From Vulcanimicrobiota bacterium (lineage in GTDB: Bacteria; Vulcanimicrobiota; Xenobia; Xenobiales; JADMJV01), in contig JBFWNU010000012.1 in the NCBI GenBank assembly GCA_050250895.1, forward strand, positions 32,001 to 96,000: 64,000 bases of DNA, given 5' to 3'. The notes under the pieces were generated by a model that saw only the letters and a list, made by a program, of their open reading frames with translations, had not been told where the DNA came from and made no database searches. Every line of letters starts with the position of its first letter. Positions within the stretch are counted from its first letter, which is position 1. Shown one piece after another: positions 18,484-38,038 of this stretch. Both the position numbers and the translations under genes were made by a program.

Positions 18484-19563
18484 TTATACGCGGGCCAGCC
18501 AGAAGCTGGTCTCGAGCACCGAGTTGATGGAAGCTGCGTTTTCGCGGGTGAAGATCTGCTTGGCGGCCTGGGAGATCTTGCCCCGGCGCAGCGAGTCGAC
18601 GGCATCGGCCACCGAGACGGCCACGTGCTGTTGCACACTGGCGTCGCGGAAGCAATCGACCATACATGATTGGCAGCCATCGCGGATTCTCTGGCTGCCG
18701 TCGAACTCGAAGATATGGCACATCGGGCGCTTCCAGCTGTTGCAACGCCAGAGATAGAGGTTCCAATCGAGATAGAACTGCTTCCAACCACCCAGGCACT
18801 CGAAGCGTTGAGGGCGCTCGTCGAGGTGGGCGTGCATGTCATCGAGCGAGGCGGTGGGGTTGAGCACGGGAATGTCGCGCTTGAGTCCCTTGACGGTCTC
18901 GATCCAGTCGTGCAATTCGTCTTTCGAGAAGGTGACCAGATCAGAATCGGCCGCCCCCAGATAAGACGACTCGAGGGCCGTCAGTGGAAACGAGAAGGTC
19001 ACCGCTTCAAAGCCTAGATCGCGCAGAAACTCCGGCAACTTGCCCGGAGTCTTGATCAGGCGGCTGCAGGTGACCGACGCCGTACAACCGATCTTGTGGT
19101 GGCGGAAGCGTTCGAGCCCCTTCTTGATCTTCTCGCAAACCCCGGACAGTCCGCGGTTGTGTTCGTGGGCCTGGACATCGGGGGCGTCGATCGAGATGAT
19201 CACCCCGGAAAGGCCGGTCTCGGCCAGAGCGTCGATACTGCGCTCGGTGAAAGCCGAGCCGTTACTGACCATCATGGTGGTCATACCGACCTCTTTGGCG
19301 TGCTTGAGAATGTCGTTGCAATGGCGGTGGACCATCGGTTCGCCACCGGTCACGACCAGAAAGCGAACACCGTGGGTGTAGAGAACATCGATGGCTCGCA
19401 GGGCATCTCCGAGTAGCACCGACTTGCCCGATTTGGCCGGCAGCCGGTCCCGGGAAAAACTACAGAAATCGCAGGCGGCATTACAGACGTTGGTAATGGC
19501 GAATTGGCAAGTGCTGGGCCCGCCGTCAACAAAGACCTGCTTCACAATCTCAAGCCACTTCAT
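18484..19563 (-). CDS. Radical SAM protein
   Basis: CNAACDFC, TGGEP, Cys-rich C-terminal auxiliary-cluster region. Confidence 0.9.
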   Translation of the reverse strand: MKWLEIVKQVFVDGGPSTCQFAITNVCNAACDFCSFSRDRLPAKSGKSVLLGDALRAIDVLYTHGVRFLVVTGGEPMVHRHCNDILKHAKEVGMTTMMVSNGSAFTERSIDALAETGLSGVIISIDAPDVQAHEHNRGLSGVCEKIKKGLERFRHHKIGCTASVTCSRLIKTPGKLPEFLRDLGFEAVTFSFPLTALESSYLGAADSDLVTFSKDELHDWIETVKGLKRDIPVLNPTASLDDMHAHLDERPQRFECLGGWKQFYLDWNLYLWRCNSWKRPMCHIFEFDGSQRIRDGCQSCMVDCFRDASVQQHVAVSVADAVDSLRRGKISQAAKQIFTRENAASINSVLETSFWLARV

Positions 19564-19616
19564 CGCAAGGCCGCCGTTCGCCGGGAGGATGGCAACCCCT
19601 CCCCAGGTAGGGGTTC

Positions 19617-19661
19617 CGTGCTTTTTGTCACATCTAGACCTGCAAAACCTTGTGGTATAGT
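19617..19661 (+). promoter_or_regulatory. Promoter with -10 TATAGT and possible CRP-like site CGTGC-N6-TCACA
   Basis: TGTGG-TATAGT upstream of SD GGAGG and GTG 19687. Confidence 0.4.
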
Positions 19662-19686
19662 CGCAAGTGGAAGATTGGAGGCCCGC

Positions 19687-22600
19687 GTGAGAGCCTGGTT
19701 AACATTGTTTGTCGGACTCGTGATGTCGCTGTCGGCAGTCGCCGATTCTCCCACGCTCGTTTTGGCGAGTGGGCACGCCGGCAAGATTGTGGCGCTGGCG
19801 GTGAGCCCCGACGGGCGTTGGGTCGCCAGCAGCGGCTTCGAGGGACTGGTCAAGGTGTGGGACGTTAGCAACCAGCGGGTGGTGGCCACCCTCCAGGACC
19901 CGGCCCTCAAGCCCGACCGAAGGATTCATCTCAACTATACCTCGCTGGCCTTCACTCCCGACGGCAAACTGCTCGTCGCCACCAATGACGGTTCCATGCG
20001 ATTGTGGGACCCGGCTTCAGCTGCCCTGCTCCGAAGCTTTCAGGTGGGACCCACGGAGACCGAAGAAGGAACTCGGCTGGCCCTGTTGCCTCAGGTCGGG
20101 CGAGCGGTGGTCGCCAGAGCCGACACCGTCTACCTCATCGACTATGCAAGAGGGGCGACGGTCGATACCCTCCGCCAGGAGGGAATGGTCTTCTCAAGTC
20201 TGACCACGTCGAGTAGTGGCCGCGTGGCCGTCGGAGCAACCAGCACGGGCGGAGGCGTGTTACTGCTTGACCCAAACTTTAAAAAGCAGCGTTTTCTCGA
20301 ACTTCCCGAGCGCTGGGGAGCCGAGCAGCTAGACTACTCCGCCCAGGGCGAGCGTCTGGCGATTCTGTCGGGTAGCGGCGACCTGTTGCTCTGGGATGGC
20401 AACCAGCTCTCGAAGACCGGGATTCTCGGGCACAGCGGTAAGATCCGTTGGAACGGGCCGAATCTGTTGGTTTCGTCGCAGGTCATCGACGAGTCGCCTC
20501 TGCGAGAGCTAGACGGTCAGGCCAGGCTGATCAAAACGGCCAGCTTGGACGGTGTCTTCGAGTCCATGCATCCGTTCCCCGATGGTAAGCATGTCATGCT
20601 CGGCTTTTACAACGGTGAGCTCGGCTACTATGGACTCGAGGACCAGAAGCTGACGCGCTGGAACGGCATCGTCTTCCGGCCGAACGCCATCGCGACCGCA
20701 AGCAACTTGCTAGCTCTCGGCGGCAGGCAAGGCGAGGTGTGTGTCTTCGATCTCAATCAGGGTCGCGTCTCGGCCCATCTGCAAGCGACCGTGGGCTCGG
20801 CCGAGAGCCTGGCAATCTCGCTGGCGGCGGGACAGGTCGCCGCCAGCGACTACTACTCCGGGCGGGTCCAGGTCTATGACATGAAGACCCTCAAGGAGAT
20901 CGGCCGTTTCGAATCTCAAACGGGCGACGCTTCGACTTCGTTGGCCTACAGTGCCGATGGCAGCAGGTTCGCTATCTTGCACAGCTCAGGCCGGGTCGAC
21001 CTGTATGATACCTCGGCCCTTAGAGCGGCAGGGCACCTCGAGCCCCCTTCTGTCAAGATGCGAGCCTTCTCGTCGCTGGCCTTCCATCCCAGCGGAAACC
21101 GGGTGGCCGCCTGCAACCGGCAGGGCGATGTGGTCGAGTGGCTGCTTTCGAGCAAAGCCACCATCCAGCGCCGGGTCTATCACCGAGAGGGTACTTCGAC
21201 CCATCTCAACCAGGTTGTCTATAGCCCCGACGGTCGCTGGCTCGCGGTGGCGGCCAACTCGGGCGAGGTGTCGATCTTCGAGGTCGACTTCGAGGACGCG
21301 CCCACCGTGGTCGAGGCCCCCGGACCGTGCATGAGTCTCGATTTTTCGCCGGACAGCCGCACCCTCGCACTGGGGGGTACCACTGGTGAATTGGCCCTTA
21401 TCGACGTGAAAACGGGCCGGGAGCGCTCACGCCATGCCGGCCACGTGGGCACCATCGTCGACCTCGGCTTCAGTCGGAACGGCCAGGCGATCTTTTCCGC
21501 CGGTCTTGACGGCACGGTTCGCATCTGGGCCGGCAGCGACGGTCGACCCCTGGCCACGCTGCTAGCCACCGGTGGGGCCGAGTGGGTGTTGGCGACCCCC
21601 CAGGGCTCGTTCGATGGCACCCCGGAAGGACAGCGGGTGCTCGAATGGCGGGTGGGTGACACCATCTTCGCCCTCGACCAGTTCTTCAACCAGTACTTCA
21701 CTCCGGGTCTGTTGACCACCCTGGTCGGCACCGGCCAGGAGATCGCTGCCCCCGAGGCTCCTCAGGCCTTGAAAGCGCCACCTCGGGTGACCATCCTCTC
21801 GCCTGGGCCGGGCGACCGCTTCGAGGCCGAGGCCGAGGTGAAGGTGGGAGTGGAAGAAAATGGAGGTGGCCTGGACGGTCCCTACCTTTTTGTCAACGGA
21901 CACCGACTGCCCGACAACTTCCGCTCCTCGACCGGACCTGGGCAGTACACTTTCCGCGCTCCCTTGACCAAAGGGCACAACGTGCTGCGGGCTACGGCCT
22001 TCAATGCCGACCGCAGCGTCGAGAGTCGTGGGGCCCGGGTCACGGTCGAAAGCGATGCCGCCGTGTCTCGCCAGCCCGCGCTTCACATCCTGGCCGTGGG
22101 CGTAGATCACTACAAATCGGGTCTCACGCTCGGCTACGCTCGCGACGACGCGAGCGCCATCGCCAAAGCGTTCAATTCGGACCTTTTCTCGGACGTTCGG
22201 GTCAAGCTTCTGCTCGACGAGCAGGCTTCCGGGCAGGGCCTGCAGGCGGCCTTCGCCCAACTCGAACAAGAGGCTCTGCCCCACGATACGGTGATTGTCT
22301 ATCTGGCCGGTCACGGCACGCTGGTGGGTGACGTCTACTATTTTCTACCCTACGACGCCGCCTACGGCAGTGACGAGGAACTGCGTAAAACCGGCCTTTC
22401 CAGCACCGAACTGGCCGAGCACCTGACTCGGGTGTCGGCCACCAAACAGTTGGTCGTCCTCGATACCTGTCGTTCCGGCGCGGCCGCTCCCGTCCTGGGC
22501 AAGTTTCTGGCCGCCCGCGACGGCCTCTCGCTGATCAAGGCCCAGCAACGGTTGGCACGAGCCAGCGGTACTTTCTTGCTGGCCGCCTCCACGGCCGAGC

Positions 22601-22848
22601 AGTATGCCAAGGAGGTTCCCGAACTTGGTCACGGGATATTGACTTACGCCCTGCTGAAAGGACTCGGGGATAAGGCGGCCCCCCAAGCCCATCTCAGCGA
22701 CGACGGTAGCGTCTCGGTCAATGCCCTGCTGCAGTACGTCGCCGGCCAGGTGCCCGATCTCACCACGCGCTACCACGGCGAGATGCAGAACGTGGTGCAA
22801 TATAGCACGGGGCAGGATTTTCCGCTCAAGCTCGAGGTTAAACGCTGA
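19687..22848 (+). CDS. Exported WD40-repeat + Ig-like + caspase-family (C14) peptidase
   Basis: Signal peptide, many WD40 repeats, catalytic YLAGHG and LDTCRSG. Confidence 0.9.
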   Translation: MRAWLTLFVGLVMSLSAVADSPTLVLASGHAGKIVALAVSPDGRWVASSGFEGLVKVWDVSNQRVVATLQDPALKPDRRIHLNYTSLAFTPDGKLLVATNDGSMRLWDPASAALLRSFQVGPTETEEGTRLALLPQVGRAVVARADTVYLIDYARGATVDTLRQEGMVFSSLTTSSSGRVAVGATSTGGGVLLLDPNFKKQRFLELPERWGAEQLDYSAQGERLAILSGSGDLLLWDGNQLSKTGILGHSGKIRWNGPNLLVSSQVIDESPLRELDGQARLIKTASLDGVFESMHPFPDGKHVMLGFYNGELGYYGLEDQKLTRWNGIVFRPNAIATASNLLALGGRQGEVCVFDLNQGRVSAHLQATVGSAESLAISLAAGQVAASDYYSGRVQVYDMKTLKEIGRFESQTGDASTSLAYSADGSRFAILHSSGRVDLYDTSALRAAGHLEPPSVKMRAFSSLAFHPSGNRVAACNRQGDVVEWLLSSKATIQRRVYHREGTSTHLNQVVYSPDGRWLAVAANSGEVSIFEVDFEDAPTVVEAPGPCMSLDFSPDSRTLALGGTTGELALIDVKTGRERSRHAGHVGTIVDLGFSRNGQAIFSAGLDGTVRIWAGSDGRPLATLLATGGAEWVLATPQGSFDGTPEGQRVLEWRVGDTIFALDQFFNQYFTPGLLTTLVGTGQEIAAPEAPQALKAPPRVTILSPGPGDRFEAEAEVKVGVEENGGGLDGPYLFVNGHRLPDNFRSSTGPGQYTFRAPLTKGHNVLRATAFNADRSVESRGARVTVESDAAVSRQPALHILAVGVDHYKSGLTLGYARDDASAIAKAFNSDLFSDVRVKLLLDEQASGQGLQAAFAQLEQEALPHDTVIVYLAGHGTLVGDVYYFLPYDAAYGSDEELRKTGLSSTELAEHLTRVSATKQLVVLDTCRSGAAAPVLGKFLAARDGLSLIKAQQRLARASGTFLLAASTAEQYAKEVPELGHGILTYALLKGLGDKAAPQAHLSDDGSVSVNALLQYVAGQVPDLTTRYHGEMQNVVQYSTGQDFPLKLEVKR

Positions 22849-26200: not shown

Positions 26201-27040
26201 ATGGAAAACTTTCTTCGTTTTCGGGGGACAGACCGCTATTTGACCAATTCGGCCCTGGAGGCGGCCGTCAACTGCGCCCTGGCGCTCGAGAAGCCCCTAT
26301 TGGTGAGGGGCGAGCCCGGAACCGGCAAGACTTTGTTGGCCGAAGCCGTGGCCGAAGGGCTGGGCCTCGAGCTGGTTCGCTGGCATGTCAAAAGCACCAC
26401 CCGGGCCCAGGATGGTCTCTATGTCTACGACACGGTGCAGCGCTTGTACGACTCGCGTTTCGATGACCGCAACGTGCATGACATCAGGCAATACATCAAA
26501 CTGGGGCCGCTGGGACAGGCGTTCTCGGCTCCCTCGCGGGTGGTGCTGCTGATCGACGAGATCGACAAGGCCGATATCGAGTTTCCCAATGATCTGCTTC
26601 ATGAGCTCGACCGGATGCGGTTTCGCATCACCGAGACCAACGAACTGGTCGAAGCCAAAGAGCGACCCATCGTGATAATTACTTCCAACAACGAAAAGGA
26701 GCTGCCCGATGCGTTCCTGCGGCGTTGTGTCTTTCACTTCATCGACTTTCCCGAGCCCGAATTCATGCGCGAGATCGTCGAGGTCCATCATCCCGGGTTG
26801 GACCAAGAACTGGCCCGCCAGGCCATGGAGGCTTTCTTCGGCTTGCGCGAGTTGCCCCGCCTTCGTAAACGGCCCAGCACCAGCGAACTGATCGACTGGA
26901 TCTCGGCGCTCAAGGCGGCCGGCATCGAGCAGGTCACCCTCGAGCCGGGCATGCCGTTCCTGGGCACACTGCTCAAGAAAGAGCAAGATCTGGCCACCCT
27001 GGCCGAGCATGTCACGCGCCGACCCGGCTGGCGCAACTGA
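26201..27040 (+). CDS. MoxR-family AAA+ ATPase
   Basis: GEPGTGKT, LLIDEIDKAD, LPDAFLRRC. Confidence 0.93.
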   Translation: MENFLRFRGTDRYLTNSALEAAVNCALALEKPLLVRGEPGTGKTLLAEAVAEGLGLELVRWHVKSTTRAQDGLYVYDTVQRLYDSRFDDRNVHDIRQYIKLGPLGQAFSAPSRVVLLIDEIDKADIEFPNDLLHELDRMRFRITETNELVEAKERPIVIITSNNEKELPDAFLRRCVFHFIDFPEPEFMREIVEVHHPGLDQELARQAMEAFFGLRELPRLRKRPSTSELIDWISALKAAGIEQVTLEPGMPFLGTLLKKEQDLATLAEHVTRRPGWRN

Positions 27041-28227
27041 TGTTCGTCCCTTTTCTTTACGAACTACGGTCGCGCGGGGTGCCGGTCGGGACTCAAGAGG
27101 CCGTGGCCCTGGCCGAGGCTCTCAAAAAAGGGCTTCACCAGAGTTCGCTGGACGGCTTCTACCACATCTCCAGGGCCCTGATGGTCCACTCGGAGGCTCA
27201 TCTGGACGCCTTCGACCAGGCTTTCTTGCATCACTTTCATGGGGTCGAACTGGCCGCCACGGCCCTCCATCAGGACCTGCTCGACTGGCTTCGCGACGCC
27301 CTCGATCGCATTCCAGAGCTGACCCCCGAAGAGAAGGTCTTATTCGACCTGCTCGACTTCGACGAACTCAAGAAGATGTTCGATGAACGTCTCGACGAGC
27401 AGAACGAGCGCCACGACGGAGGCGATCGCTTCATCGGCACCGGCGGTAAATCGCCTTTCGGCCACAGTGGAGCCCCGCGACCCGGCTTTCGTATCGGCGG
27501 CCGCTCGCGCAACCGGCGAGCCATGCAGGTGGCCGAGCAACGCAATTTTCGCGACTATCGCAGCGACCGCATCCTCGACGTGCGCCAGTATGCGGTGGCC
27601 TTGCGCAAGCTGCGCACCTTCGGTCGCGAGGGCAACGAGGAAGAACTCGACATCGACAAAACCATTTCGGCGACCGCCGACAACGCCGGCGAACTCGAGA
27701 TCGTCACCCGCCCGCCGCGGCGCTCCAATGTGCGGGTCATCCTCATGATGGATGTGGGCGGCACGATGGATCCTTTCACCCAGCAAGTCGAACAGCTCTT
27801 CTCGGCGGCCGCCAAAGCCACTCACTTCAAGGAGTTCCACGCCTTCTACTTTCACAACTGCGTCTACGACTCGGTCTACAAGACGGCCCGTTTTCGCAAT
27901 CCCGTGCCTGTCGACGAGATCCTGGCCCGCTACGGCAAGCACTACAAGCTGATCATGGTGGGGGATGCGATGATGGCGCCGTATGAGCTGGTCGCTCCCA
28001 AGGGCGCGCTGTTCTTCGGCTACGAGGGCAAACGCTCGGGACTAGAATGGCTACAGGCCCTAACCGACCATTTCCGCAAAGCCATCTGGCTCAATCCCGA
28101 GCCTCCTCGCTATTGGAGCGGCCGCACCCTGCACGAAATCCAGAAACTCTTCCCCATGTTCCCCCTCACCCTGGAAGGCCTCGACCAGGGCATCGCCCAC
28201 CTGGTAAAGGGAAGAGGGCGGGCCTAA
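27040..28227 (+). CDS. VWA (CoxE-like) partner protein
   Basis: DVGGTM MIDAS-like motif, VGDA.M.PYE, WLNP; coupled to MoxR. Confidence 0.88.
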   Translation: MFVPFLYELRSRGVPVGTQEAVALAEALKKGLHQSSLDGFYHISRALMVHSEAHLDAFDQAFLHHFHGVELAATALHQDLLDWLRDALDRIPELTPEEKVLFDLLDFDELKKMFDERLDEQNERHDGGDRFIGTGGKSPFGHSGAPRPGFRIGGRSRNRRAMQVAEQRNFRDYRSDRILDVRQYAVALRKLRTFGREGNEEELDIDKTISATADNAGELEIVTRPPRRSNVRVILMMDVGGTMDPFTQQVEQLFSAAAKATHFKEFHAFYFHNCVYDSVYKTARFRNPVPVDEILARYGKHYKLIMVGDAMMAPYELVAPKGALFFGYEGKRSGLEWLQALTDHFRKAIWLNPEPPRYWSGRTLHEIQKLFPMFPLTLEGLDQGIAHLVKGRGRA

Positions 28228-28244: not shown

Positions 28245-29828
28245 CTACCCCCACAAGGGCAGTTTGAGCTGGCCGTTGTCGTCGGGCTGCTTGTTGCGCT
28301 GGATGGCCAGGCTGAGGGCTCGGTCGGGATTGATCATGCCGGCGCCCTGGCTTTCGCTGCGATAGGCGGGCATCGGGGTAGCGCTGTCGCGCAGGATTTC
28401 TTTGACTTCGGCGGGCGTAAGGTGGGGGTTGGCTTCGAGCATCTCGGCCACCACGCCGGCCACGATGGGAGCAGCCATCGAGGTGCCGGGCATGCCGATG
28501 TAGTCGGTCTCGACCATGGGCAGGCGCTCGGTGGCCTCGAGCAGGTGATCAAGTTCCTGGCGGGCGTGGCTGGGGCTCTTGTGAAAGCGCACGATCGAAC
28601 TGCCGTTGAGGCCGATCATTCGCAGAGTCGGGGCCGGCACGTTGACTAGCTCGGAATCGGGCATCTTCTGCAGCCAGTCGAGGGTGCGGTGCACATCGGT
28701 GTATTTACGGGCGGTGGCCTCGAGCACCGAGTTGGGGGCGTTGGGGCCGATAATGCCTTCGCCCGGGGCTACCAGGTCGGGCTTGGAACTGCCCGCCTCG
28801 CCTCGACTCGAAAACGACGGGATCCGGTCGTCGGAGCGGTCAGGGGTGTTGCGGTCGTCGACAGCGCCGACGGTGATGACCGAGGGGCTGTCGCCGGGGC
28901 TCGAGATGGTGCCCAGTTCTGGACCCTGGTTGCCGGCCGAGACCACCACCACGATGCCCTCTTCGACGGCTCTTTCCACGGCCTTGCGAATGGGGTCGTT
29001 GGTCGAGCGGGCCGAGGTGTCGCCGGTGCCTAGAGAAAGATTAATGACGCGAATGTTATACCGTGCCTTGTTCTCGACCGCCCAGTTCAGGCCCTGAAGG
29101 ATGCGCGAGGTGCTGCCGCGGCCACTCTTGTCGAGCACTTTGACGCCGATCAGGTTGGCGTCGGGGGCGGTGCCCCGGTGGATCCCACCCGAGAGAAAGC
29201 CCGAGCCGGCGGCGTCGCCGGCCACGTGGGTGCCGTGGCCGTTGTCGTCGTAAGGTACCGATTTGCCATTCACGAAGTCTTGAAAGGCCACAATGCGCTG
29301 ATGGGGGTAGGCCAGGTCGGGATGAGGATAAATGCCGGTGTCGATGACGGCGATGCCCACTCCTTTGCCGGTGTAGGTTTGGGTTAGCGGGGTGAGAAAT
29401 CGCGGGTTCTCGAGGGGTTGCCGGGGACCTGGCGGGGGGGCGACCGGACCGTCGGCCGATCGTTGCTGCTTGCGCTCCCACGGCTCGGGATGAAGAAACG
29501 TCTCTTCGTCGTTGGGGATGGCTTCGAAGCCGGCCTTTTCGGCCAGTTCGCGATTAGCCTGGTTCATGACGGCGGTAAAGCCTTTGACCAGGGGAATCTG
29601 TTCGTCGACCACGATGTTGAGTCGGGCCAGCCGGGCGGCCAGTCCTTCGGGGCCGACCGATTGCAGCGCCTCGGGGCTGGGGACCAGCAGGTAGGGGTCC
29701 TGGCGCTCGTCGGTGCCCTCGACCAGATTGGCCGAAAAAATGGGCTCATTCAGGGGGAGGTCCATCTGGCGCTCGACCCGGCGGGGAGCGAACAAGTGGC
29801 GTTGCGATTGGATGGAGCCTACGAGCAC
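28245..29828 (-). CDS. S8 subtilase (AprX-like, no signal peptide)
   Basis: IDTG, HGTHVAG, SAGN, GTSMAAP; GTG start after GGAGAAAGGA. Confidence 0.9.
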   Translation of the reverse strand: MLVGSIQSQRHLFAPRRVERQMDLPLNEPIFSANLVEGTDERQDPYLLVPSPEALQSVGPEGLAARLARLNIVVDEQIPLVKGFTAVMNQANRELAEKAGFEAIPNDEETFLHPEPWERKQQRSADGPVAPPPGPRQPLENPRFLTPLTQTYTGKGVGIAVIDTGIYPHPDLAYPHQRIVAFQDFVNGKSVPYDDNGHGTHVAGDAAGSGFLSGGIHRGTAPDANLIGVKVLDKSGRGSTSRILQGLNWAVENKARYNIRVINLSLGTGDTSARSTNDPIRKAVERAVEEGIVVVVSAGNQGPELGTISSPGDSPSVITVGAVDDRNTPDRSDDRIPSFSSRGEAGSSKPDLVAPGEGIIGPNAPNSVLEATARKYTDVHRTLDWLQKMPDSELVNVPAPTLRMIGLNGSSIVRFHKSPSHARQELDHLLEATERLPMVETDYIGMPGTSMAAPIVAGVVAEMLEANPHLTPAEVKEILRDSATPMPAYRSESQGAGMINPDRALSLAIQRNKQPDDNGQLKLPLWG

Positions 29829-29863
29829 CTGAAGTCCTTTCTCCCCCTCGAGCAATTTCCACG

Positions 29864-29906
29864 ATGCTAACAAGCGGGCCGAGAAGGGATGTTGCCACTT
29901 TGTTAA
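29864..29906 (-). promoter_or_regulatory. Shared promoter motif copy 3 (TTAACA-N4-GGCAAC-N21-TAGCAT)
   Basis: Same geometry as the other three copies; overlaps the TPR gene stop codon. Confidence 0.65.
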
Positions 29907-31117
29907 ACTGGCGCTTCGGGGTCTTCTAAGGGGCTGTCCTCATCGGGCTCTGGTGAGGGGGGCTGGGGCGGAGCAGGCATGGGCAGGCACAGTTCTTCGG
30001 GGGCCAATTTCCAGACGCTGGCAAGCTCGCGAAAGCGCTCCCGCACCATCTGGAGATCTTCAGTGACGGCGGCCAGAAAGCGGTGGCGGGCCTGCAGCAG
30101 GTCGCCCTGTAAGAGCCGGCACTGACCGTAGCCGTAGCTGGCTTCGAACAGCTTCTCGAAGCGCTTGAGAGCCTCGCCGAAATAGGTTTCGGCCGCCGGC
30201 AGATGGCCCAGCAGCTGCTCGCTGCGACCCAGATAGTAGAATACGTAGGGGTTAGGACCATCGCGCTTCCACGAGTCGAGCAACAGCTCGGAGGCCTCCG
30301 CCAGACGATCCCGCAGGTAGGGCTCGGACTCTTTTGGCCGCGAAGAGAACAACAAGCTCTCGGCCAGGTGGAAAGCGCCCCGGAACATGTGAGGGTCCAG
30401 AGTGTGGGCTTTGCGCTGGTACTCGATGGCTTGCTCGCAGAGTTCGACGCGTTGCTCAGGGTCGCGTTGGCGCATCGCCTTTTCGAGGCGGCTCTGGCCG
30501 CGTCGCTGGCTGCCCATGGCTTGGAGCGAAGGAACGAAGTTCGCCAGGGCCTCGACCAGGCCCGGCTCCGCGAGAGTGGGGCGAGCTTCGAGTTCTTCCT
30601 CGCTGAGAGCCTCGCGGTAAAACAGTTGGGGAATGTCCCGGGGCAAGAGGGCCAGTTCGGTTTCCACCACCAGGCGGCCCAGCAGGGCGTTGCATGCGAT
30701 CAGTTCCGCAGGGTGGGCGCCCTCGACCAGACCCAGGTGGTGGCAAACCTCGCCGATGTTTTTGTCTTTGAGACTAAGAAAGGCTCGCAGGCAGGGCAGT
30801 TGCTGGTTGCGAGGCTCGAGTTGGGCGGCCCGCTCGACACTTGCTCGGGCTGCCTCGAGGTCGTCGAGGTCGGCCAGGGCCAGGCTCTTGAAGATGGGCG
30901 CGGCCGGGTTTTCGGGGGCCCGCTCGAGAGCTCGCTCGAAGTCTGCCAGGGCCTCTTCGGCTCGCCCTAGATCGAGATAAACCAGGCCGCGCTGCAGGCA
31001 GGGTCCCGGATGGTCCGCCAGGCCACTGACGGCCTCGGCGAACAGCTCCAAAGCCTGTTCGGGGTCGCCTCGACGGGCCAGGTTCTGGGCTCGAGCGAGC
31101 ACACTCCAGGTTGCCAT
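29903..31117 (-). CDS. Tetratricopeptide-repeat protein
   Basis: Several TPR units (RG.VY..LGR.EEALADFERAL..P; YYLG..LG..AE.YF). Confidence 0.85.
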   Translation of the reverse strand: MATWSVLARAQNLARRGDPEQALELFAEAVSGLADHPGPCLQRGLVYLDLGRAEEALADFERALERAPENPAAPIFKSLALADLDDLEAARASVERAAQLEPRNQQLPCLRAFLSLKDKNIGEVCHHLGLVEGAHPAELIACNALLGRLVVETELALLPRDIPQLFYREALSEEELEARPTLAEPGLVEALANFVPSLQAMGSQRRGQSRLEKAMRQRDPEQRVELCEQAIEYQRKAHTLDPHMFRGAFHLAESLLFSSRPKESEPYLRDRLAEASELLLDSWKRDGPNPYVFYYLGRSEQLLGHLPAAETYFGEALKRFEKLFEASYGYGQCRLLQGDLLQARHRFLAAVTEDLQMVRERFRELASVWKLAPEELCLPMPAPPQPPSPEPDEDSPLEDPEAPV

Positions 31118-31260
31118 GCTCTTAGGATGCCTCGTGGCAGCGAGAATTTCCTGGTTCAAGTTCTTTTCAGGGCGATGAAGTAGTCTCGACGGGTCGAGGG
31201 TTAGCACGCTTGTGAGACCAGCTGCAGAGGCTGATCGCAGTGGCCTGCTTTGGTGGCGTG

Positions 31261-31304
31261 TTAACATTTTGGCAATAAAGGTATGCAGACTTTCATGCTA
31301 GGAT
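31261..31304 (+). promoter_or_regulatory. Shared promoter motif copy 4 (TTAACA-N4-GGCAAT-N22-TAGGAT)
   Basis: -10 hexamer 9 nt before ATG 31314; no SD. Confidence 0.65.
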
Positions 31305-31313
31305 TAGGGCACT

Positions 31314-34300
31314 ATGGGCCAATTTGTGTCTCCGCTCGGAGCTCAGCTTAAAACTCCTCCCGTGGCCAAGGCTAACGGCACCCCGCGAAGAGAGGACAGC
31401 GACCAGGCACTTCCGGTCGAGAGCTTCGAAGCCAGCCAACCGCAACCCCAGGCCCGACCCGCCGAGACCGCTCGCGTGGCTCCTGAGCCCGAGCCCAGGG
31501 CAACCGAGACGTTTCTCGAGCGTCCCACGACGCCAGCGCAACCACCGAACACCCCCACCACCATTCCGGTGTTCGAGCAACCTGTTTCCGAAGAGGTCCA
31601 AGCCGTCACCGGCTCTGGCGGCGAGAGTTTGGCCGAGGTGGCCAAGCGCGTGGCCGCCGAAGTCGATCGAGCCGAGGCCGCCAAAGCCAGCCAGCCTACC
31701 GCCGCGACCACTTCCACCGAGCTTCCCAAGGCCGAGTCTGCCAAGCGGGCCGAACTGGCCTCGAACATTCGCACCCATCGCAGCGTCGGCAGCGCTCTGC
31801 TGCACTTCGTGACCGGTGACCCCCTCAAGGTTTACAAGAAAGAGCTCGATGCCATCAACAAGGCCGAGGCCATGGCTGCCAAGCTCACGACGCCGGCCGA
31901 ATTCCAGGCCAAAACGGCCGAGTTCAAGCAACGGCTGGCCAACGGCGAAACCCTCGAAGACCTGCGGGTCGAGGCCTACGCGGTGGCTCGCGAAGCCTGC
32001 AAGCAGGCCACCGGTATGCGGCCCTACGATTGTCAGATCGTGGGCGGTCTGGCCACCGACTCCGGCCGCATCGCCGAGATGGCGACCGGCGAGGGCAAGA
32101 CCCTGATGGCCGTCATGCCGCTCTACCTGAATGCTCTGGCCGGCAAGGGCGCCCATCTGGTCACGGTCAACGACACTCTGGCTGCTCGCGACGCCGAGTG
32201 GATGGGCCCTGCCTACAAGTTGCTCGGGGTTAGCGTGGGCACCGTGCTTGAAGGCATGACCCCCGAAGATAAACGAGCCGGCTACAACGCCGACATCACC
32301 TACACCACCGACCGCACCATCGGCTTTGATTATCTGCGCGACCGCACCGTTCGCAACCCTGCCCAGAGAGTGCAGCGCGAGCCCTTCTTCGCCCTCATTG
32401 ACGAGGTGGACGAGGTGCTGATCGACGAGGCTCGCACCCCACTCATCATTTCGGCTCAGGGTGAACCGGCCGCCGACGAGTATCGCACCTTCAGCGAGAT
32501 TGTCGACCACCTGACCCCGGGTGAAGACTTCTACGTCGACCGCAAGCAGCACTCGGCCTGGCTGAGCGAGACCGGTCTTGACAACGTCGAGAACGAACTG
32601 GCCTTGCGCCAGGCTCAAGCCACCTACAACCAGGCTGTGCAAGAGCACGGCGAGTCGTCGCCCCAGGCCACCGAGGCCAAACAGTGGATCGACAACGCCA
32701 CCAGGATGCGAGATGCTATCAAGGCGGAAGGGGCCGCCTACAAGGTCCACCAGGACTATCTCGAGAAGAAGCCTGGCTGGTTCAAGCGCATCTTCAACTT
32801 CGTCACCGGCAAGCAGGCCGAAGGCTACGACAAAGCCACCGAAAAAGAACTCAAGGCCAGCTACGAAGCGGCCAAAGACGCCCACGAAGAGCTCAAAGGC
32901 AGCTTCCCCGAGTATCAGCTCTATTCTGAGGATAACGCCGGTCGAGTGCGATTTCTCGACGCCAGCCTCAAAGCCCGCGCTCTGTTCACCGATGAAGACG
33001 ACTATATCGTCGAGAACGGCGAGGTCAAGATCGTCGACGAGAACAAGGGCCGCACCTCCGACGGGCGTCGCTACAACGATGGGCTGCACCAGGCTCTAGA
33101 GGCTCGCGAAGGGGTCGAGATCAAGCCCGAGCAACGGGCGGTGGCCTCGATCACCTATCCCAACCTGTTCAAGAAATACCCGCGGTTGGCCGGCATGAGC
33201 GGAACCGCCGCCACCTCGGCCGGCGAGTTCGAGAAGCTCTACGACCTTTCGGTGGTCCAGATTCCTACCAACTTGCAGTTCGAGACCAATCCGGCCGACC
33301 CGACCGCCGCTCCGCGCCACAACCGTATCGACGAGGCCGATGTCATCTATCCCTCGTTGAAAGCCAAGTTCGATGGCGTGGTCCAAGAGGCGGTCAAGAA
33401 TTTCGAAGAGGGCGTCCCGATTCTGATCGGAACGCTTTCGGTCAAGGCCAATAAGTATGTGGCCTATCAACTGGTCAAGGCCGGCGTGCCCAAAGACGCC
33501 ATCCAGGTGCTCAACGCCGAAAGCGTGCGCGGCGATAAGCAAGCCGAGAACGAGATCATCGAGAAGGCAGGCATTTCGGGCATGGTCACGGTGGCCACCA
33601 ATATGGCCGGCCGGGGCGCCAACATCAAGCCCGACCTGACCAACTACAAAAAGATCGCCATGGCGGCTATCGACGCCGCCAACGGCCAGAGCAAGCCCGT
33701 CATCGTGCACATGAAGAACGCCAAAGAGGCCCAGCGCCTGGCTGAGTGGCTCGACAACCGGGCTTCCTATGCAGTGGCCGACCAGCCTCAAGACGTGCTG
33801 CCCGGTCCCGGTCAGGTCTTGATCCGCGCCGGTCACGAGGGCCCGGTGCCCGAGGGTGCGACCCTGCTCGATTATCACGATTATCCCACCGGCGGTCTTT
33901 ACGTCATCGGCACCGAGCGAGCCAATTCGCGCCGCATCGACGATCAGTTGATCGGTCGCTCGGCCCGCCAGGGTGCGCCCGGCCGTAGCAAGTTCTTCCT
34001 CAGCCTGCAAGACGACCTCTTGCGCGTGTTCGGCGGCGAAAATCTGTCGCCGTTACTCGACCTTTTCGGTGACTCGTCCAAGGGAGTTCAATCGAATCTG
34101 GCCGACAAACTGGTGGCCCAGGCCCAGTCTCGGGTCGAGTCGATGCACTTCGAGGTGCGTGACAACACCACCAAATACGACGAGGTGCTCAACAAGCAAC
34201 GCGACACCTTTTATGCTTACCGCGACTCGATTCTGGGTCCGGCCCCGGGTCAGGAAGGCGAACAAGCCGACGTCAAAGGCCTGATGCTCAGTTACGCCGT

Positions 34301-34898
34301 CAACTCGATCACCGATGAGGTGCTCGAGCATCTACCCAAGCACCGCAATCAAACCCCCGAAGATGTCCGCAAGGCTCTGACCGAGGTTTCGGCCAAATAC
34401 AACTTCCCCCTCGAAGACCTCAATGTCTTCGGCAAGATCAAGACCTCTGAACTCGAGACCCAGGTGGCGAGCTACGTCGAAGACAAGGTGACTTCGGCGA
34501 TGGGTGTGTTCGAAGAGCACGGGCTCAAGCTCGAGGATGGAGCCCGAGTCGGCATGTTGACCATTCTCGACACCAACTGGACCGACCATCTCGAAATCAT
34601 GGAAGCGCTCAAGGATGGTATCCAGTGGGAGTCCATCGCCGGGCGCAAACCCGAGGATGCCTTCATCGAGCGAGGCTTCGAGGTCTTCAAAGAGATGATT
34701 ACCAATATCGAGCGCAGTTGCACCTCCCAACTGGTTTCTGAACTGTTGGCCGGCGCCGATATGATCAAAAAGGGTGTCATCAAGGTGCCACCCGTCCAGC
34801 GGCCGGCACCCCAGTCGGGCCTCACCCAGACCTGGGCGCGCGACGACGACGGCAAGATGCGAGCCGAGTGGAAGGCCGAGGGAGCCGCCACCCATTAG
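31314..34898 (+). CDS. secA: Atypical SecA-family translocase ATPase (probable accessory paralog)
   Basis: EMATGEGKT, DEVD..LIDEARTPLIIS, ATNMAGRG, RIDDQLIGRSARQG; long N-extension, PPXD insertion, no C-terminal CPCGSG Zn motif. Confidence 0.85.
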   Translation: MGQFVSPLGAQLKTPPVAKANGTPRREDSDQALPVESFEASQPQPQARPAETARVAPEPEPRATETFLERPTTPAQPPNTPTTIPVFEQPVSEEVQAVTGSGGESLAEVAKRVAAEVDRAEAAKASQPTAATTSTELPKAESAKRAELASNIRTHRSVGSALLHFVTGDPLKVYKKELDAINKAEAMAAKLTTPAEFQAKTAEFKQRLANGETLEDLRVEAYAVAREACKQATGMRPYDCQIVGGLATDSGRIAEMATGEGKTLMAVMPLYLNALAGKGAHLVTVNDTLAARDAEWMGPAYKLLGVSVGTVLEGMTPEDKRAGYNADITYTTDRTIGFDYLRDRTVRNPAQRVQREPFFALIDEVDEVLIDEARTPLIISAQGEPAADEYRTFSEIVDHLTPGEDFYVDRKQHSAWLSETGLDNVENELALRQAQATYNQAVQEHGESSPQATEAKQWIDNATRMRDAIKAEGAAYKVHQDYLEKKPGWFKRIFNFVTGKQAEGYDKATEKELKASYEAAKDAHEELKGSFPEYQLYSEDNAGRVRFLDASLKARALFTDEDDYIVENGEVKIVDENKGRTSDGRRYNDGLHQALEAREGVEIKPEQRAVASITYPNLFKKYPRLAGMSGTAATSAGEFEKLYDLSVVQIPTNLQFETNPADPTAAPRHNRIDEADVIYPSLKAKFDGVVQEAVKNFEEGVPILIGTLSVKANKYVAYQLVKAGVPKDAIQVLNAESVRGDKQAENEIIEKAGISGMVTVATNMAGRGANIKPDLTNYKKIAMAAIDAANGQSKPVIVHMKNAKEAQRLAEWLDNRASYAVADQPQDVLPGPGQVLIRAGHEGPVPEGATLLDYHDYPTGGLYVIGTERANSRRIDDQLIGRSARQGAPGRSKFFLSLQDDLLRVFGGENLSPLLDLFGDSSKGVQSNLADKLVAQAQSRVESMHFEVRDNTTKYDEVLNKQRDTFYAYRDSILGPAPGQEGEQADVKGLMLSYAVNSITDEVLEHLPKHRNQTPEDVRKALTEVSAKYNFPLEDLNVFGKIKTSELETQVASYVEDKVTSAMGVFEEHGLKLEDGARVGMLTILDTNWTDHLEIMEALKDGIQWESIAGRKPEDAFIERGFEVFKEMITNIERSCTSQLVSELLAGADMIKKGVIKVPPVQRPAPQSGLTQTWARDDDGKMRAEWKAEGAATH

Positions 34899-36057: not shown

Positions 36058-36197
36058 ACCCCAATCATATCCATTCGAGCCGGGCGCGGGTAAGAACCGG
36101 GTATACTAGCGCCCCCCGGTAGGAAGTTACTAAGCAGAAATCGATCTTGTGTTCGCTTTTAGGCAGGGAGCCCCCATGTTGAAAAGAATTCGTGAGA

Positions 36198-37004
36198 ATG
36201 CGCCTCCTGCATGGAGATTGCCTCAAGTTGCTGCCGACCTTCGCTCCCGACAGCGTGGATGTAGTGGTCACTTCGCCACCCTATAACCTGGGCATCGGGT
36301 ATTCGCTCTATGACGACACGCTCGGCCGCGACGAGTATCTGGATTGGCTCAGCCAGTGGGCTCGAGAGATCCATCGAGTGCTCAAGCCGGATGGATCGCT
36401 CTTTCTCAACATCGGCGGCAAGCCTTCGGACCCCTGGGTCCCCTTCGAGGTGGCCGGCCGCATGCGCGAGGTCTTTAGCCTGCAAAACGTGATTCACTGG
36501 GTGAAATCGATCGCCATCGACAAACGTGACGTGGGCAATTACGGCAAGATTCAAGAGGACGTGGCCGTGGGGCACTACAAGCCGATCAACAGTCGCCGCT
36601 TTGTGAACGACTGCCACGAATATGTCTTCCACCTGACCAAGCGCGGAGATGTGAGCCTGGACCGTCTCTCGGTCGGCGTAGAATACCAGGACCGCTCTAA
36701 CGTATCTCGCTGGGCCCAGGCCGGCCAGGGGCGGCGCTGTCGTGGCAATACCTGGTTCGTGCCCTATCGTACCATCAAGTGGCGCGACCGTGACCGTCCC
36801 CACCCGGCCACCTTTCCCGTCGAGCTAGCCCGTAAGTGCATCCTGCTCCACGGCGTGGAACAGAACATGTTGGTGATGGACCCGTTTCTGGGCATCGGCC
36901 ACGCTGCTTTGGCGGCCCGCGAACTGGGCGTCGACTTCGTCGGCATCGAGATCGACCCCCACTATCTCGAAGTGGCCCGAGGGCTGTTGACCGAGGCCGT
37001 CTAG
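36198..37004 (+). CDS. Orphan beta-class amino DNA methyltransferase (N4-C/N6-A)
   Basis: TSPPY motif IV precedes HPATFP and MDPFLGIG motif I. Confidence 0.9.
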   Translation: MRLLHGDCLKLLPTFAPDSVDVVVTSPPYNLGIGYSLYDDTLGRDEYLDWLSQWAREIHRVLKPDGSLFLNIGGKPSDPWVPFEVAGRMREVFSLQNVIHWVKSIAIDKRDVGNYGKIQEDVAVGHYKPINSRRFVNDCHEYVFHLTKRGDVSLDRLSVGVEYQDRSNVSRWAQAGQGRRCRGNTWFVPYRTIKWRDRDRPHPATFPVELARKCILLHGVEQNMLVMDPFLGIGHAALAARELGVDFVGIEIDPHYLEVARGLLTEAV

Positions 37005-37042
37005 TTCAAGAATCTTTCAGCTCTTGCCGTTAGGCTAAGAGG

Positions 37043-38038
37043 GTGAAAGTGTCAGGCGATCTCTCGAAGCGGCTGCCGGGCTACAAGTCCGTCCTGGAGC
37101 GGCCCGTGGCCAAACCGCTTGACCGTTACGAACCTTCTCCTTCCATCGAGGTGCCTCTAGGGTCACCGCTGGCGGCCCTGATGGCTCGCAACGTGGCGCT
37201 GCAGTATTATAATCCCACCGCCGACGCCCGCGCCCAGGCGAGTTACTACCAGAATCTAGACCTGGGCGAGGATGCCCGGAGCGCTTTCGAGGCCCTCAGC
37301 GATCTCGTCTGCGACACCCACCACACCCTTCTTCCCTATGAGCCGCGGGGCCACAACTGGGTGCATCTGCGACCCAACCTTCGGCTCGAGCCGATCTACG
37401 GAGATGAACCGGTGCGCGCGGACTCTCCTTTGCGACTGGGTTTGCCGGTGTTGTCCAACAAGCGCCTCAAGCGTTCACCCGAGGCTCGCGAGAAGGCTCT
37501 GTCCCGGCTCGAAGCCGAGGGCCGGCAATGGGTAGCAGCCATCGGTGCCAGCCTGGACCCGGTCAGCGCCGCGCTGCGCATCGCCGAACTCGAGGCCAGG
37601 CGCTACTTCAACGTCGAGCATGTGGTGGCCAAATACTGGTTTGACAGCAACGACATCATGAAGGGCGATCTTCACCATCTCTTCCCCGAGGTCAAAGACC
37701 GCAATAGCTTCCGCGGCAACCTTCCCCTGGGCGAGCTGGACGGGGCCGGCGACGCGCGGGACTCGGACCACTTCGAGCCGGCCGCTGGCAAGGGGGCCGT
37801 GGCCCGGGCTACTCTCTACTTTCTGCTGCGTTACCCTCGCGCCATCGGGGGCGAAGGCGAGTATACCGCCGCCGATATCGACCAGTTGCTCGAGTGGCAC
37901 CGGGCCGACCCTCCGGACCTGTACGAGTTTCACCGTAACGCCGAGATCGAGAAGCTGCAGGGCAACCGGAACCCCTTCATCGATCACCCCGAATGGGCCG
38001 ACCGCGTCGACTTCGGACTGGGATTGGCCCGAGGCTGA
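37043..38038 (+). CDS. Endonuclease I (EndA/Bsn-like) nuclease without signal peptide
   Basis: NVEHVV..WF, DLHHLFP..NSFRGN, GAVARA.LY, QGNRNPFIDHPEW. Confidence 0.85.
   Translation: MKVSGDLSKRLPGYKSVLERPVAKPLDRYEPSPSIEVPLGSPLAALMARNVALQYYNPTADARAQASYYQNLDLGEDARSAFEALSDLVCDTHHTLLPYEPRGHNWVHLRPNLRLEPIYGDEPVRADSPLRLGLPVLSNKRLKRSPEAREKALSRLEAEGRQWVAAIGASLDPVSAALRIAELEARRYFNVEHVVAKYWFDSNDIMKGDLHHLFPEVKDRNSFRGNLPLGELDGAGDARDSDHFEPAAGKGAVARATLYFLLRYPRAIGGEGEYTAADIDQLLEWHRADPPDLYEFHRNAEIEKLQGNRNPFIDHPEWADRVDFGLGLARG

Follow-up and report, generated by a model that had tools for sequence, protein, structure and literature searches.

A gene on the minus strand of a 64,000-nucleotide stretch of DNA from a Vulcanimicrobiota bacterium (GenBank assembly GCA_050250895.1, contig JBFWNU010000012.1, positions 32,001 to 96,000; this whole stretch is the window, whose numbering is used below) encodes an AprX-like protease of the S8 subtilase family that carries a hexapeptide of one and the same pattern near each of its ends, namely QMDLPL and QLKLPL. 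The analysis confirmed these hexapeptides as conserved short linear motifs in the disordered tails of a cytoplasmic AprX-like protease. The gene product is best explained as a cytoplasmic AprX-related subtilase zymogen with a lineage-specific helical insertion. The best-supported hypothesis for a partner is that both motifs are Hda-type hexapeptides holding the protease on the DnaN sliding clamp, a proposal that is made tentatively and that falls somewhat short of an even call. A previous reading of this DNA, made from the sequence only, had pointed to the two hexamers at positions 29768-29751 and 28271-28254, and these coordinates proved exact in the translation. The gene and its motifs are as follows.

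28245..29828, minus strand: AprX-like S8 subtilase gene, 527 amino acids, stop counted in (open reading frame (ORF), translation, Pfam, alignment)
29751..29768, minus strand: N-terminal motif QMDLPL, residues 21-26, in the disordered N-tail (translation, alignment, model)
28254..28271, minus strand: C-terminal motif QLKLPL, residues 520-525, in the disordered C-tail (translation, alignment, model)

Terminal motifs and their conservation

Both hexamers lie outside the catalytic domain (residues 148-510), as the sequence-only reading had stated, and QLKLPL ends two residues short of the stop. In an AlphaFold2 model built on a 30-sequence alignment (mean predicted local distance difference test score, pLDDT, 83.6), residues 1-38 and 517-527 have a pLDDT below 50 and neither tail is docked intramolecularly; both motifs are therefore located in tails that the model leaves free.

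Conservation of the motifs, which had been proposed as a check, turned out in their favour. Column statistics were taken from an alignment (A3) of thirteen close orthologues, the protease studied (P0001) included, sharing 58-95% identity. At the C-terminus, Q520, [LM]521 and [LFI]523 are present in all thirteen sequences, G519 and P524 in twelve, and a hydrophobic residue at 525 in eleven. Position 522, the third of the motif, has an entropy of 2.57 bits and varies as freely as columns 510-518 of the linker (1.6-2.8 bits each). The full C-terminal pattern occurs in 11/13 orthologues, the exceptions being P0012 (QMTIDDF) and P0013 (QLRFPG). The N-terminal motif is complete in seven of the thirteen; in P0010 the annotated start is the methionine within the motif, and AQMDLPF is found in 5/5 genomes of genus g4. 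In a maximum-likelihood tree of twenty-two sequences the thirteen orthologues form a clade (support 100/99). Both main subclades of this clade include carriers of the N-terminal motif, which is identical (QMDLPL) in P0001, P0005 and P0007 despite their differing flanks; it is therefore probably ancestral in the clade, with losses in P0004 and in the pair P0008 and P0011.

Outside the clade the motifs were not found: among sixty-nine readable homologue tails they are confined to P0001-P0011, and among eighty genome and eighty metagenome loci only L063 carries the motif, this locus being itself a clade member (same contig as G018:C147). L217 possesses a QLGLV, but within an unrelated long extension. 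Other relatives have conserved ends of their own. A distant clade (P0027-P0061) shows the C-tail VK[DEN]G[KE]LxI(I)PPxIxW[PG] together with a conserved extreme N-terminus, MxIDKxGNIG, and Acidobacteriota-type relatives (L122, L139, L142, L152, L154 and many soil metagenome loci) bear a long C-terminal extension of 'DNIVWGT' repeats with a GG[FL] tail end.

Fit to clamp-binding hexapeptides and a complex model with DnaN

Two forms of clamp-binding peptide are described in one study (bioRxiv 10.64898/2026.05.27.728225): a pentapeptide, Q-phi-x-L-F (consensus QL[S/D]LF), of which positions 1, 4 and 5 weigh most for clamp binding, and a hexapeptide, Q-phi-x-L-x-L. The same source gives a dissociation constant (Kd) of 0.44 uM for the binding of QLSLPL of Escherichia coli Hda to the E. 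coli clamp. In Caulobacter, the QFKLPL of HdaA, which resembles QL[SP]LPL, is reported to be needed for interaction with DnaN in vivo (PMC3836487). QMDLPL and QLKLPL fit the Q-phi-x-L-x-L pattern of hexapeptides as well as QL[SP]LPL, the Hda form. Judged by the alignment, the motif is conserved with the periodicity that a hexapeptide bound by the clamp should show: positions 1, 2 and 4 are fixed, position 3 is free and position 6 is hydrophobic in 11/13 sequences. The likeness to Hda and HdaA comprises the same hexapeptide pattern (QLSLPL and QFKLPL there, QLKLPL and QMDLPL here), placed in every case in a terminal unstructured segment. The difference is that Hda belongs to the AAA+ proteins and has a single motif, at its N-terminus, whose binding has been shown experimentally, whereas the protein described here is a protease with two putative clamp-binding motifs from a non-proteobacterial phylum.

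The clamp of the host is ordinary and its dnaN gene adjoins dnaA. A complex of this DnaN (26-row alignment A2) with residues 486-527 of the protease (13-row alignment A3) was modelled in three runs and accompanied by three controls. The interaction score from aligned errors (ipSAE) was 0.80, 0.80 and 0.79 versus 0.00, 0.01 and 0.00 for the controls; of 80 solved complexes 58 attain the mark applied to this score, as do 2 of 110 mismatched pairs. Between runs, at least 91% of the contacts agree, and the partner pLDDT is at least 50. The modelled interface consists of residues 515 and 517-526 of the protease and residues 173, 175-178, 244-245, 248-249, 280-282, 284, 324, 348, 350, 364, 366-369 and 371 of DnaN. 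On alignment with solved clamps of gammaproteobacteria, the DnaN residues fall in the segments TDGHRL, PDYRRV and VVMPMRL, which form the canonical peptide pocket between domains II and III. Structure prediction with DnaN, the second check that had been suggested, thus placed the C-terminal motif in the canonical pocket (0.80 versus 0.01 for the best control). The model speaks for the compatibility of this motif with the pocket, binding itself being beyond what such a model can tell.

Protease family and cellular location

29835..29847, minus strand: Shine-Dalgarno-like GGGGGAGAAAGGA, 6 nt ahead of GTG 29828 (read from sequence)

The open frame spans 28245..29873 on the minus strand, its upstream limit lying beyond the GTG at 29828. 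This GTG is the likely translation start, since GGGGGAGAAAGGA is found six bases ahead of it and orthologues have their N-termini at the corresponding M-x-[VL] position. The protease is a subtilase of family S8: Peptidase_S8 (PF00082) is its sole Pfam family (190.9 bits versus a cut-off of 21.8), and D163, H198, N300 and S450 are invariant in alignment A1 (P0001 and 29 of the 120 homologues listed), leaving the Asp-His-Ser triad and the oxyanion Asn intact. The host genome (9.5 Mb) holds thirty-six S8 matches. Identity as a mycosin of type VII secretion was not supported, the score for TIGR03921 being 158.6 bits versus a cut-off of 278.75.

A Kyte-Doolittle scan of the N-termini detected no hydrophobic core of a signal peptide in any of the thirteen close orthologues, the highest 12-residue mean within the first 70 residues being at most 1.43 in 13/13. 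Relatives, mostly from metagenome bins of Eremiobacterota, Vulcanimicrobiota and Xenobia, are annotated as 'S8 family peptidase' or 'serine protease AprX'. By the absence of a signal peptide, the propeptide-like N-region and these AprX-named relatives, the protein is classed as a predicted AprX-type intracellular subtilase, and as such it could meet the clamp in the cytoplasm. It shares with AprX of Bacillus subtilis the S8 family, the lack of a signal peptide and a propeptide-like N-region, and a Bacillus locus matches it at 43% identity over residues 153-505. It differs from AprX-like proteins of Bacillota, which are without the insertion of ~73 amino acids, have a shorter linker, show no terminal motif of clamp type in sixty-nine loci and are not known to be linked to the clamp. 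B. subtilis AprX is described as intracellular and SOS-induced and its gene as a member of the LexA/SOS regulon (PMC8767453), which connects the family with DNA damage.

Proposed mechanism

In one Eremiobacterota/Xenobia-like clade the protease has gained short linear motifs in its disordered tails, and in the mechanism proposed these motifs (consensus Q-[LM]-x-[LF]-P-hydrophobic) would tether the enzyme to the DnaN sliding clamp. With two copies, each protomer of the DnaN ring could be engaged. The protease would thereby be concentrated on clamp-loaded DNA, that is, at replication forks and repair patches, where it could cut clamp-associated or DNA-blocking proteins. Actual binding to DnaN, the joint use of both motifs and the identity of the substrate are inferred; that the substrates would be replisome proteins or DNA-protein crosslinks, as the sequence-only reading had it, is pure conjecture. 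Of the tether that it had proposed, conservation of the motifs, the docking model with DnaN and the link of AprX to the LexA regulon speak in favour; the pentapeptides of the host partners, the SecA/tetratricopeptide repeat (TPR) module and the possibility that the model merely echoes solved clamp-peptide structures, all taken up below, speak against.

A more specific version, in which the protease is a bacterial counterpart of SPRTN/FAM111A with one hexapeptide for each DnaN protomer, clears DNA-protein crosslinks or stalled clamp-bound proteins and is restrained by the TPR protein encoded next to it, is considered unlikely. The likeness to SPRTN and FAM111A, the two eukaryotic proteases that dock on PCNA, lies in the proposed logic, a short motif (there the PCNA-interacting peptide (PIP) box) bringing a protease to the sliding clamp for removal of protein obstacles at the fork; FAM111A is moreover a serine protease too. 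The differences lie in the unrelated folds (metalloprotease and trypsin-like), in the clamp being PCNA and in a function that has been shown experimentally, whereas the analogy drawn here is by inference. To our knowledge, no replication-coupled protease is known in bacteria, and among the papers listed in the literature searched, judged by titles and the starts of abstracts, none describes a bacterial protease with a clamp-binding motif. Binding of the motifs to DnaN would make the enzyme the first protease in bacteria to be directed to the sliding clamp and would offer a concrete hypothesis for the presence of aprX in the SOS regulon of B. subtilis. Should the SPRTN/FAM111A comparison hold, it would supply a function for the SOS-regulated AprX family.

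Evidence weighed against clamp tethering

Several results weigh against a tether to the clamp. The first concerns chance, for which the pattern Q[LM].[LF]P[LFIVM] was counted in 7,763 non-overlapping greedy ORFs of at least 100 amino acids from the host genome. It occurs 42 times versus 41.1 expected, which is the level of chance, so that a single match to the motif is uninformative. Within the last 12 residues it was observed once versus 0.76 expected. Other carriers checked by Pfam are an alpha-2-macroglobulin, histidine kinases, CheB and T2SS-F, and further carriers have no Pfam match at all (three of the seven scanned in one set and one in another). Enrichment of the motif across the proteome, or a clamp network built on the hexapeptide, is accordingly unsupported, the frequency being that of chance and the other carriers being unrelated or without a Pfam family. 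The protease is the only one of the 7,763 ORFs to hold two copies of the pattern, and ~4e-4 proteins per proteome would be expected to combine a copy within the first 40 residues with another within the last 12, a figure that is post hoc. It is the conservation in orthologues by which the motifs exceed chance.

The second concerns the form of the motif. Canonical motifs are present in the recognisable clamp partners of the host, namely MutS (QLSLF, after domain V), an ImuB-like protein (QLSLF), DinB (C-terminal QLRLF) and DnaE1 (internal QFSLF). That the host clamp uses canonical motifs speaks for the tether, but all four are pentapeptides, and the hexapeptide form was not encountered among them. 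The study cited above also reports that the affinity of hexapeptides for the B. subtilis clamp is lower, by a factor of at least 10, than for that of E. coli, and calls them a form that 'may be less universal' (bioRxiv 10.64898/2026.05.27.728225). Use of the hexapeptide by the host clamp is therefore only putative. The conserved proline (12/13) and the aromatic residue that frequently follows exceed what a clamp motif needs, and another partner may be the source of this constraint. No motif of clamp type was found in the N-terminal regions or at the C-termini of the sixty-nine Bacillota AprX loci, from which it follows that the motifs are an innovation of the clade and not a trait of the AprX family. 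The tails of distant homologues (GKLKLPPY, G[KE]LxI(I)PPxIxW) are motif-like but lack the glutamine and are spaced differently from the last helix; these tails slightly weaken the reading of the motifs as clamp ligands.

Two further candidates for clamp binding were noticed in the host genome: a radical SAM protein (G000:C1:3282562-3283641, L027) that ends in QLSLFEE and a DUF72 protein (G000:C3:575922-576983, L028) with QLDLFGDEE near its N-terminus.

The third concerns regulation and the model itself. No LexA box was recognisable upstream of the protease gene with the patterns scanned (Cheo box, gamma, alpha and GAAC-N-GTTC), which may not be those of this phylum. The same scan gave no match upstream of the four lexA-like genes, recA, the imuB cassette, the TPR gene or the second secA gene, and is uninformative because these controls also failed to match. 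As to the complex model, its result may stem from remembered structures, since many complexes of clamps with peptides have already been solved.

Four matches to a LexA-like DNA-binding domain were seen in the host genome. At G000:C7:361594-367234, a cassette of mutasome type begins with a LexA-like gene and continues with a gene for an ImuB-like protein, which has its QLSLF at residue 362, and another DnaE gene, the second.

Gene neighbourhood and alternative readings of the motifs

29903..31267, minus strand: TPR protein gene, directly upstream of the protease gene with a gap of ~30 nt (Pfam TPR families)
31314..34898, plus strand: second SecA paralogue, 1194 amino acids, divergent from the TPR-protease pair (Pfam SecA domains)

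The last point against the tether is the gene context. The order second SecA, TPR protein, protease is kept in 4/4 clade genomes with long flanks (G001, G016, G018, G020), which belong to two families; identities there are 61-73% for the protease, 35-47% for the TPR protein and 41-51% for the second SecA, and the VWA, MoxR, PhnD, ExbD and FabH neighbours are not kept. The protease is the last member of this conserved module, within which nothing is DNA-related; the genes downstream of the protease vary between genomes and are not DNA-related either. Within the module, the TPR protein is another candidate partner for these motifs.

The start of the TPR protein is probably at residue 51, where its Atlas record begins. 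Measured between the longest ORFs, 46 nt separate the second SecA gene from the TPR gene. A housekeeping SecA is encoded elsewhere in the genome, at G000:C1. The second SecA appears to be a divergent SecA paralogue; assignment to an accessory SecA2 equivalog failed, as it scores below every NCBIfam cut-off for SecA and SecA2 (score/cut-off: SecA 778.5/814, TIGR03714 575/930, TIGR04397 633/1085, TIGR04221 449/725).

On the strength of this module, the motifs may instead be docking sites for the co-encoded TPR protein (as adaptor, inhibitor or chaperone), which perhaps hands the protease to the second SecA for non-classical export, the likeness to clamp motifs being coincidental. This is the foremost alternative, although we regard it as unlikely. 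It is favoured by the position of the TPR gene on the same strand upstream of the protease gene, found in all six relatives' loci with a clade orthologue (L002-L007), and by the retention of the triad in all four genomes while other neighbours vary. It is also favoured by genome G040, where the protease (53% identical) lacks the N-terminal motif and shows QMTLDE in a degenerate tail; neither the TPR gene nor the second SecA is present there in the stretch covered, which reaches ~6.6 kb upstream of the protease and 6 kb downstream of it. Short peptides in extended form are typical ligands of TPR domains, as with [PV]xLxxP in the case of type III secretion chaperones. The proline and the following aromatic residue go beyond the needs of a clamp motif.

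Against it, G004 and G002, and in a looser form G033, contain a pair of SecA2 and TPR protein with no protease beside it (the pair was not seen at three g3 loci), and no Q[LM]x[LFI][PG]-hydrophobic motif was found in the ORFs around the SecA2-TPR pairs of G002, G003, G004, G009, G014 and G033; the TPR protein thus needs neither this cargo nor this motif. The invariant glutamine at position 1 and the free position 3 are predicted by clamp binding and not by TPR binding. Motif and module occur together in one clade only, which amounts to a single evolutionary event. The TPR protein could not be placed in the LcrH/SycD family (38.3 bits versus a cut-off of 104.8), and the failure of the second SecA to reach any SecA2 cut-off tells against this alternative as well. 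Were the motifs to serve the module of TPR protein and second SecA, they would reveal an undescribed route for the handling or export of a protease without signal peptide in a barely studied phylum. The case illustrates how a match to a short motif is to be weighed against gene context. In the literature, nothing was found that joins SecA2, tetratricopeptide and subtilisin.

It is improbable, more so than docking to the TPR protein, that the motifs serve the protease itself, either as pseudo-substrate or product-like segments in the cleft, in cis or in trans (auto-inhibition), or as sites of autoprocessing. In the classic substrate pattern of subtilisin, Pro occupies P2 and Leu or Phe occupies P1, and x-L-P-[LF] resembles this pattern; both motifs contain hydrophobic-Pro-hydrophobic, and a cytoplasmic protease of broad specificity requires tight control. 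A precedent exists in the intracellular subtilisins (ISPs), which are likewise cytoplasmic subtilases with a conserved Pro-containing motif in an N-terminal extension; this extension inhibits the enzyme and its conserved [LVI]-[IFLV]-P-[YFH] (LIPY/F) sits in the active site (PMC6220982). ISPs differ in having neither a propeptide domain nor a C-terminal copy, and their pattern fits none of the thirteen C-terminal and none of the eight N-terminal instances (0/21 in total). With both tails undocked and below a pLDDT of 50 in the monomer model, although AlphaFold may miss such contacts, identification of the tails as an auto-inhibitory extension of the ISP LIPY/F type was rejected. The invariant glutamine six residues ahead of the presumed P1 would be left unexplained, and a propeptide-like domain is already available for inhibition.

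Least probable, by a small step, is that the motifs are lineage-specific conserved residues with no partner or with another role (e.g. a degron) and resemble clamp motifs by chance, as could be argued from the chance-level frequency in the proteome (42 versus 41.1 expected), from carriers limited to thirteen sequences of one clade that are kin by descent and from the loosely similar Gln-less tails of distant homologues, since conservation in the motif columns far exceeds that of the disordered flanks, subclades whose flanks have diverged share an identical N-terminal hexamer and one protein bears the same pattern at both ends.

Further features were observed around the module. The second SecA possesses an N-terminal extension and an enlarged motor domain, and several genera of the order have kept the SecA-TPR pair. 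At least three long SecA copies exist in certain genomes (e.g. G009). In the long SecA matches that neighbour the TPR-protease pair in g4 genomes (G016:C179, G020:C37, G022:C69), one or two TGA codons lie in frame. Convergent with the protease gene, at 26201-28227 on the plus strand, genes for a MoxR-type AAA ATPase and a CoxE-like VWA protein overlap at stop and start; they are unconserved in relatives.

Domain architecture and the helical insertion

29514..29699, minus strand: propeptide-like N-domain, residues 44-105, beta-alpha-beta-beta-alpha-beta (model, pLDDT 83-93)
28299..29387, minus strand: catalytic subtilase domain, residues 148-510, with the insertion within it (Pfam, Tk-SP comparison, model)
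28509..28730, minus strand: all-helical insertion of ~73 amino acids, residues ~367-440, between the LVAPGE strand and GTSMA (alignments, model)

Residues 44-105 have no Pfam match; in the model, their topology is suggestive of an I9 propeptide. The linker at residues ~115-140 is poorly ordered in the AlphaFold2 model. The closest solved structure by sequence is that of Tk-SP from Thermococcus kodakarensis (3afg/9ues; E 3e-58 over the catalytic domain), which differs in being without the insertion and without the terminal motifs.

The sequence-only reading had noted an insertion of ~70 amino acids between LVAPG and GTSMA, and this insertion is real. It precedes the catalytic serine (S450) and is helical in the model with a pLDDT of ~90. 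Residues ~368-440 are unmatched in Tk-SP, whose chain there runs from 230 to 238, and the insertion is also missing in P0113, an AprX-like protein of 413 amino acids from Bacillota (Thermoanaerobacterium). It is found in all thirty sequences of A1 and all twenty-three of alignment A4, P398 and G406 being invariant. Folded alone, the insertion gave a pLDDT of 72.1, and the fold search with this isolated model returned nothing above background (best Z 5.1, to generic helical bundles; no Foldseek match at E <= 0.001). In g2/g3 homologues (L016:2134-2460, L018:1678-2004, L009:1669-1995), a helix-hairpin-helix-like signature occurs in the insertion, reading GIGPGTA[AE]K[IL]K or GLGARSIAAFK. Pfam analysis of ten inserts yielded sub-threshold matches only, in two of the ten (HHH_8, E 0.3; SAM_SMF, E 0.018). 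With matches of this level and fold searches leading to generic helical bundles, the insertion is not claimed as a helix-hairpin-helix DNA-binding module.

Other genes in the window

A protein of 1114 amino acids with many WD40 beta-propeller repeats and a C-terminal caspase-like Peptidase_C14 domain is encoded at 19504-22848 on the plus strand. At 36192-38038, also on the plus strand, an N6/N4 DNA methylase gene is followed by a gene of the Endonuclease I family, and the two may form a pair resembling a restriction-modification system.

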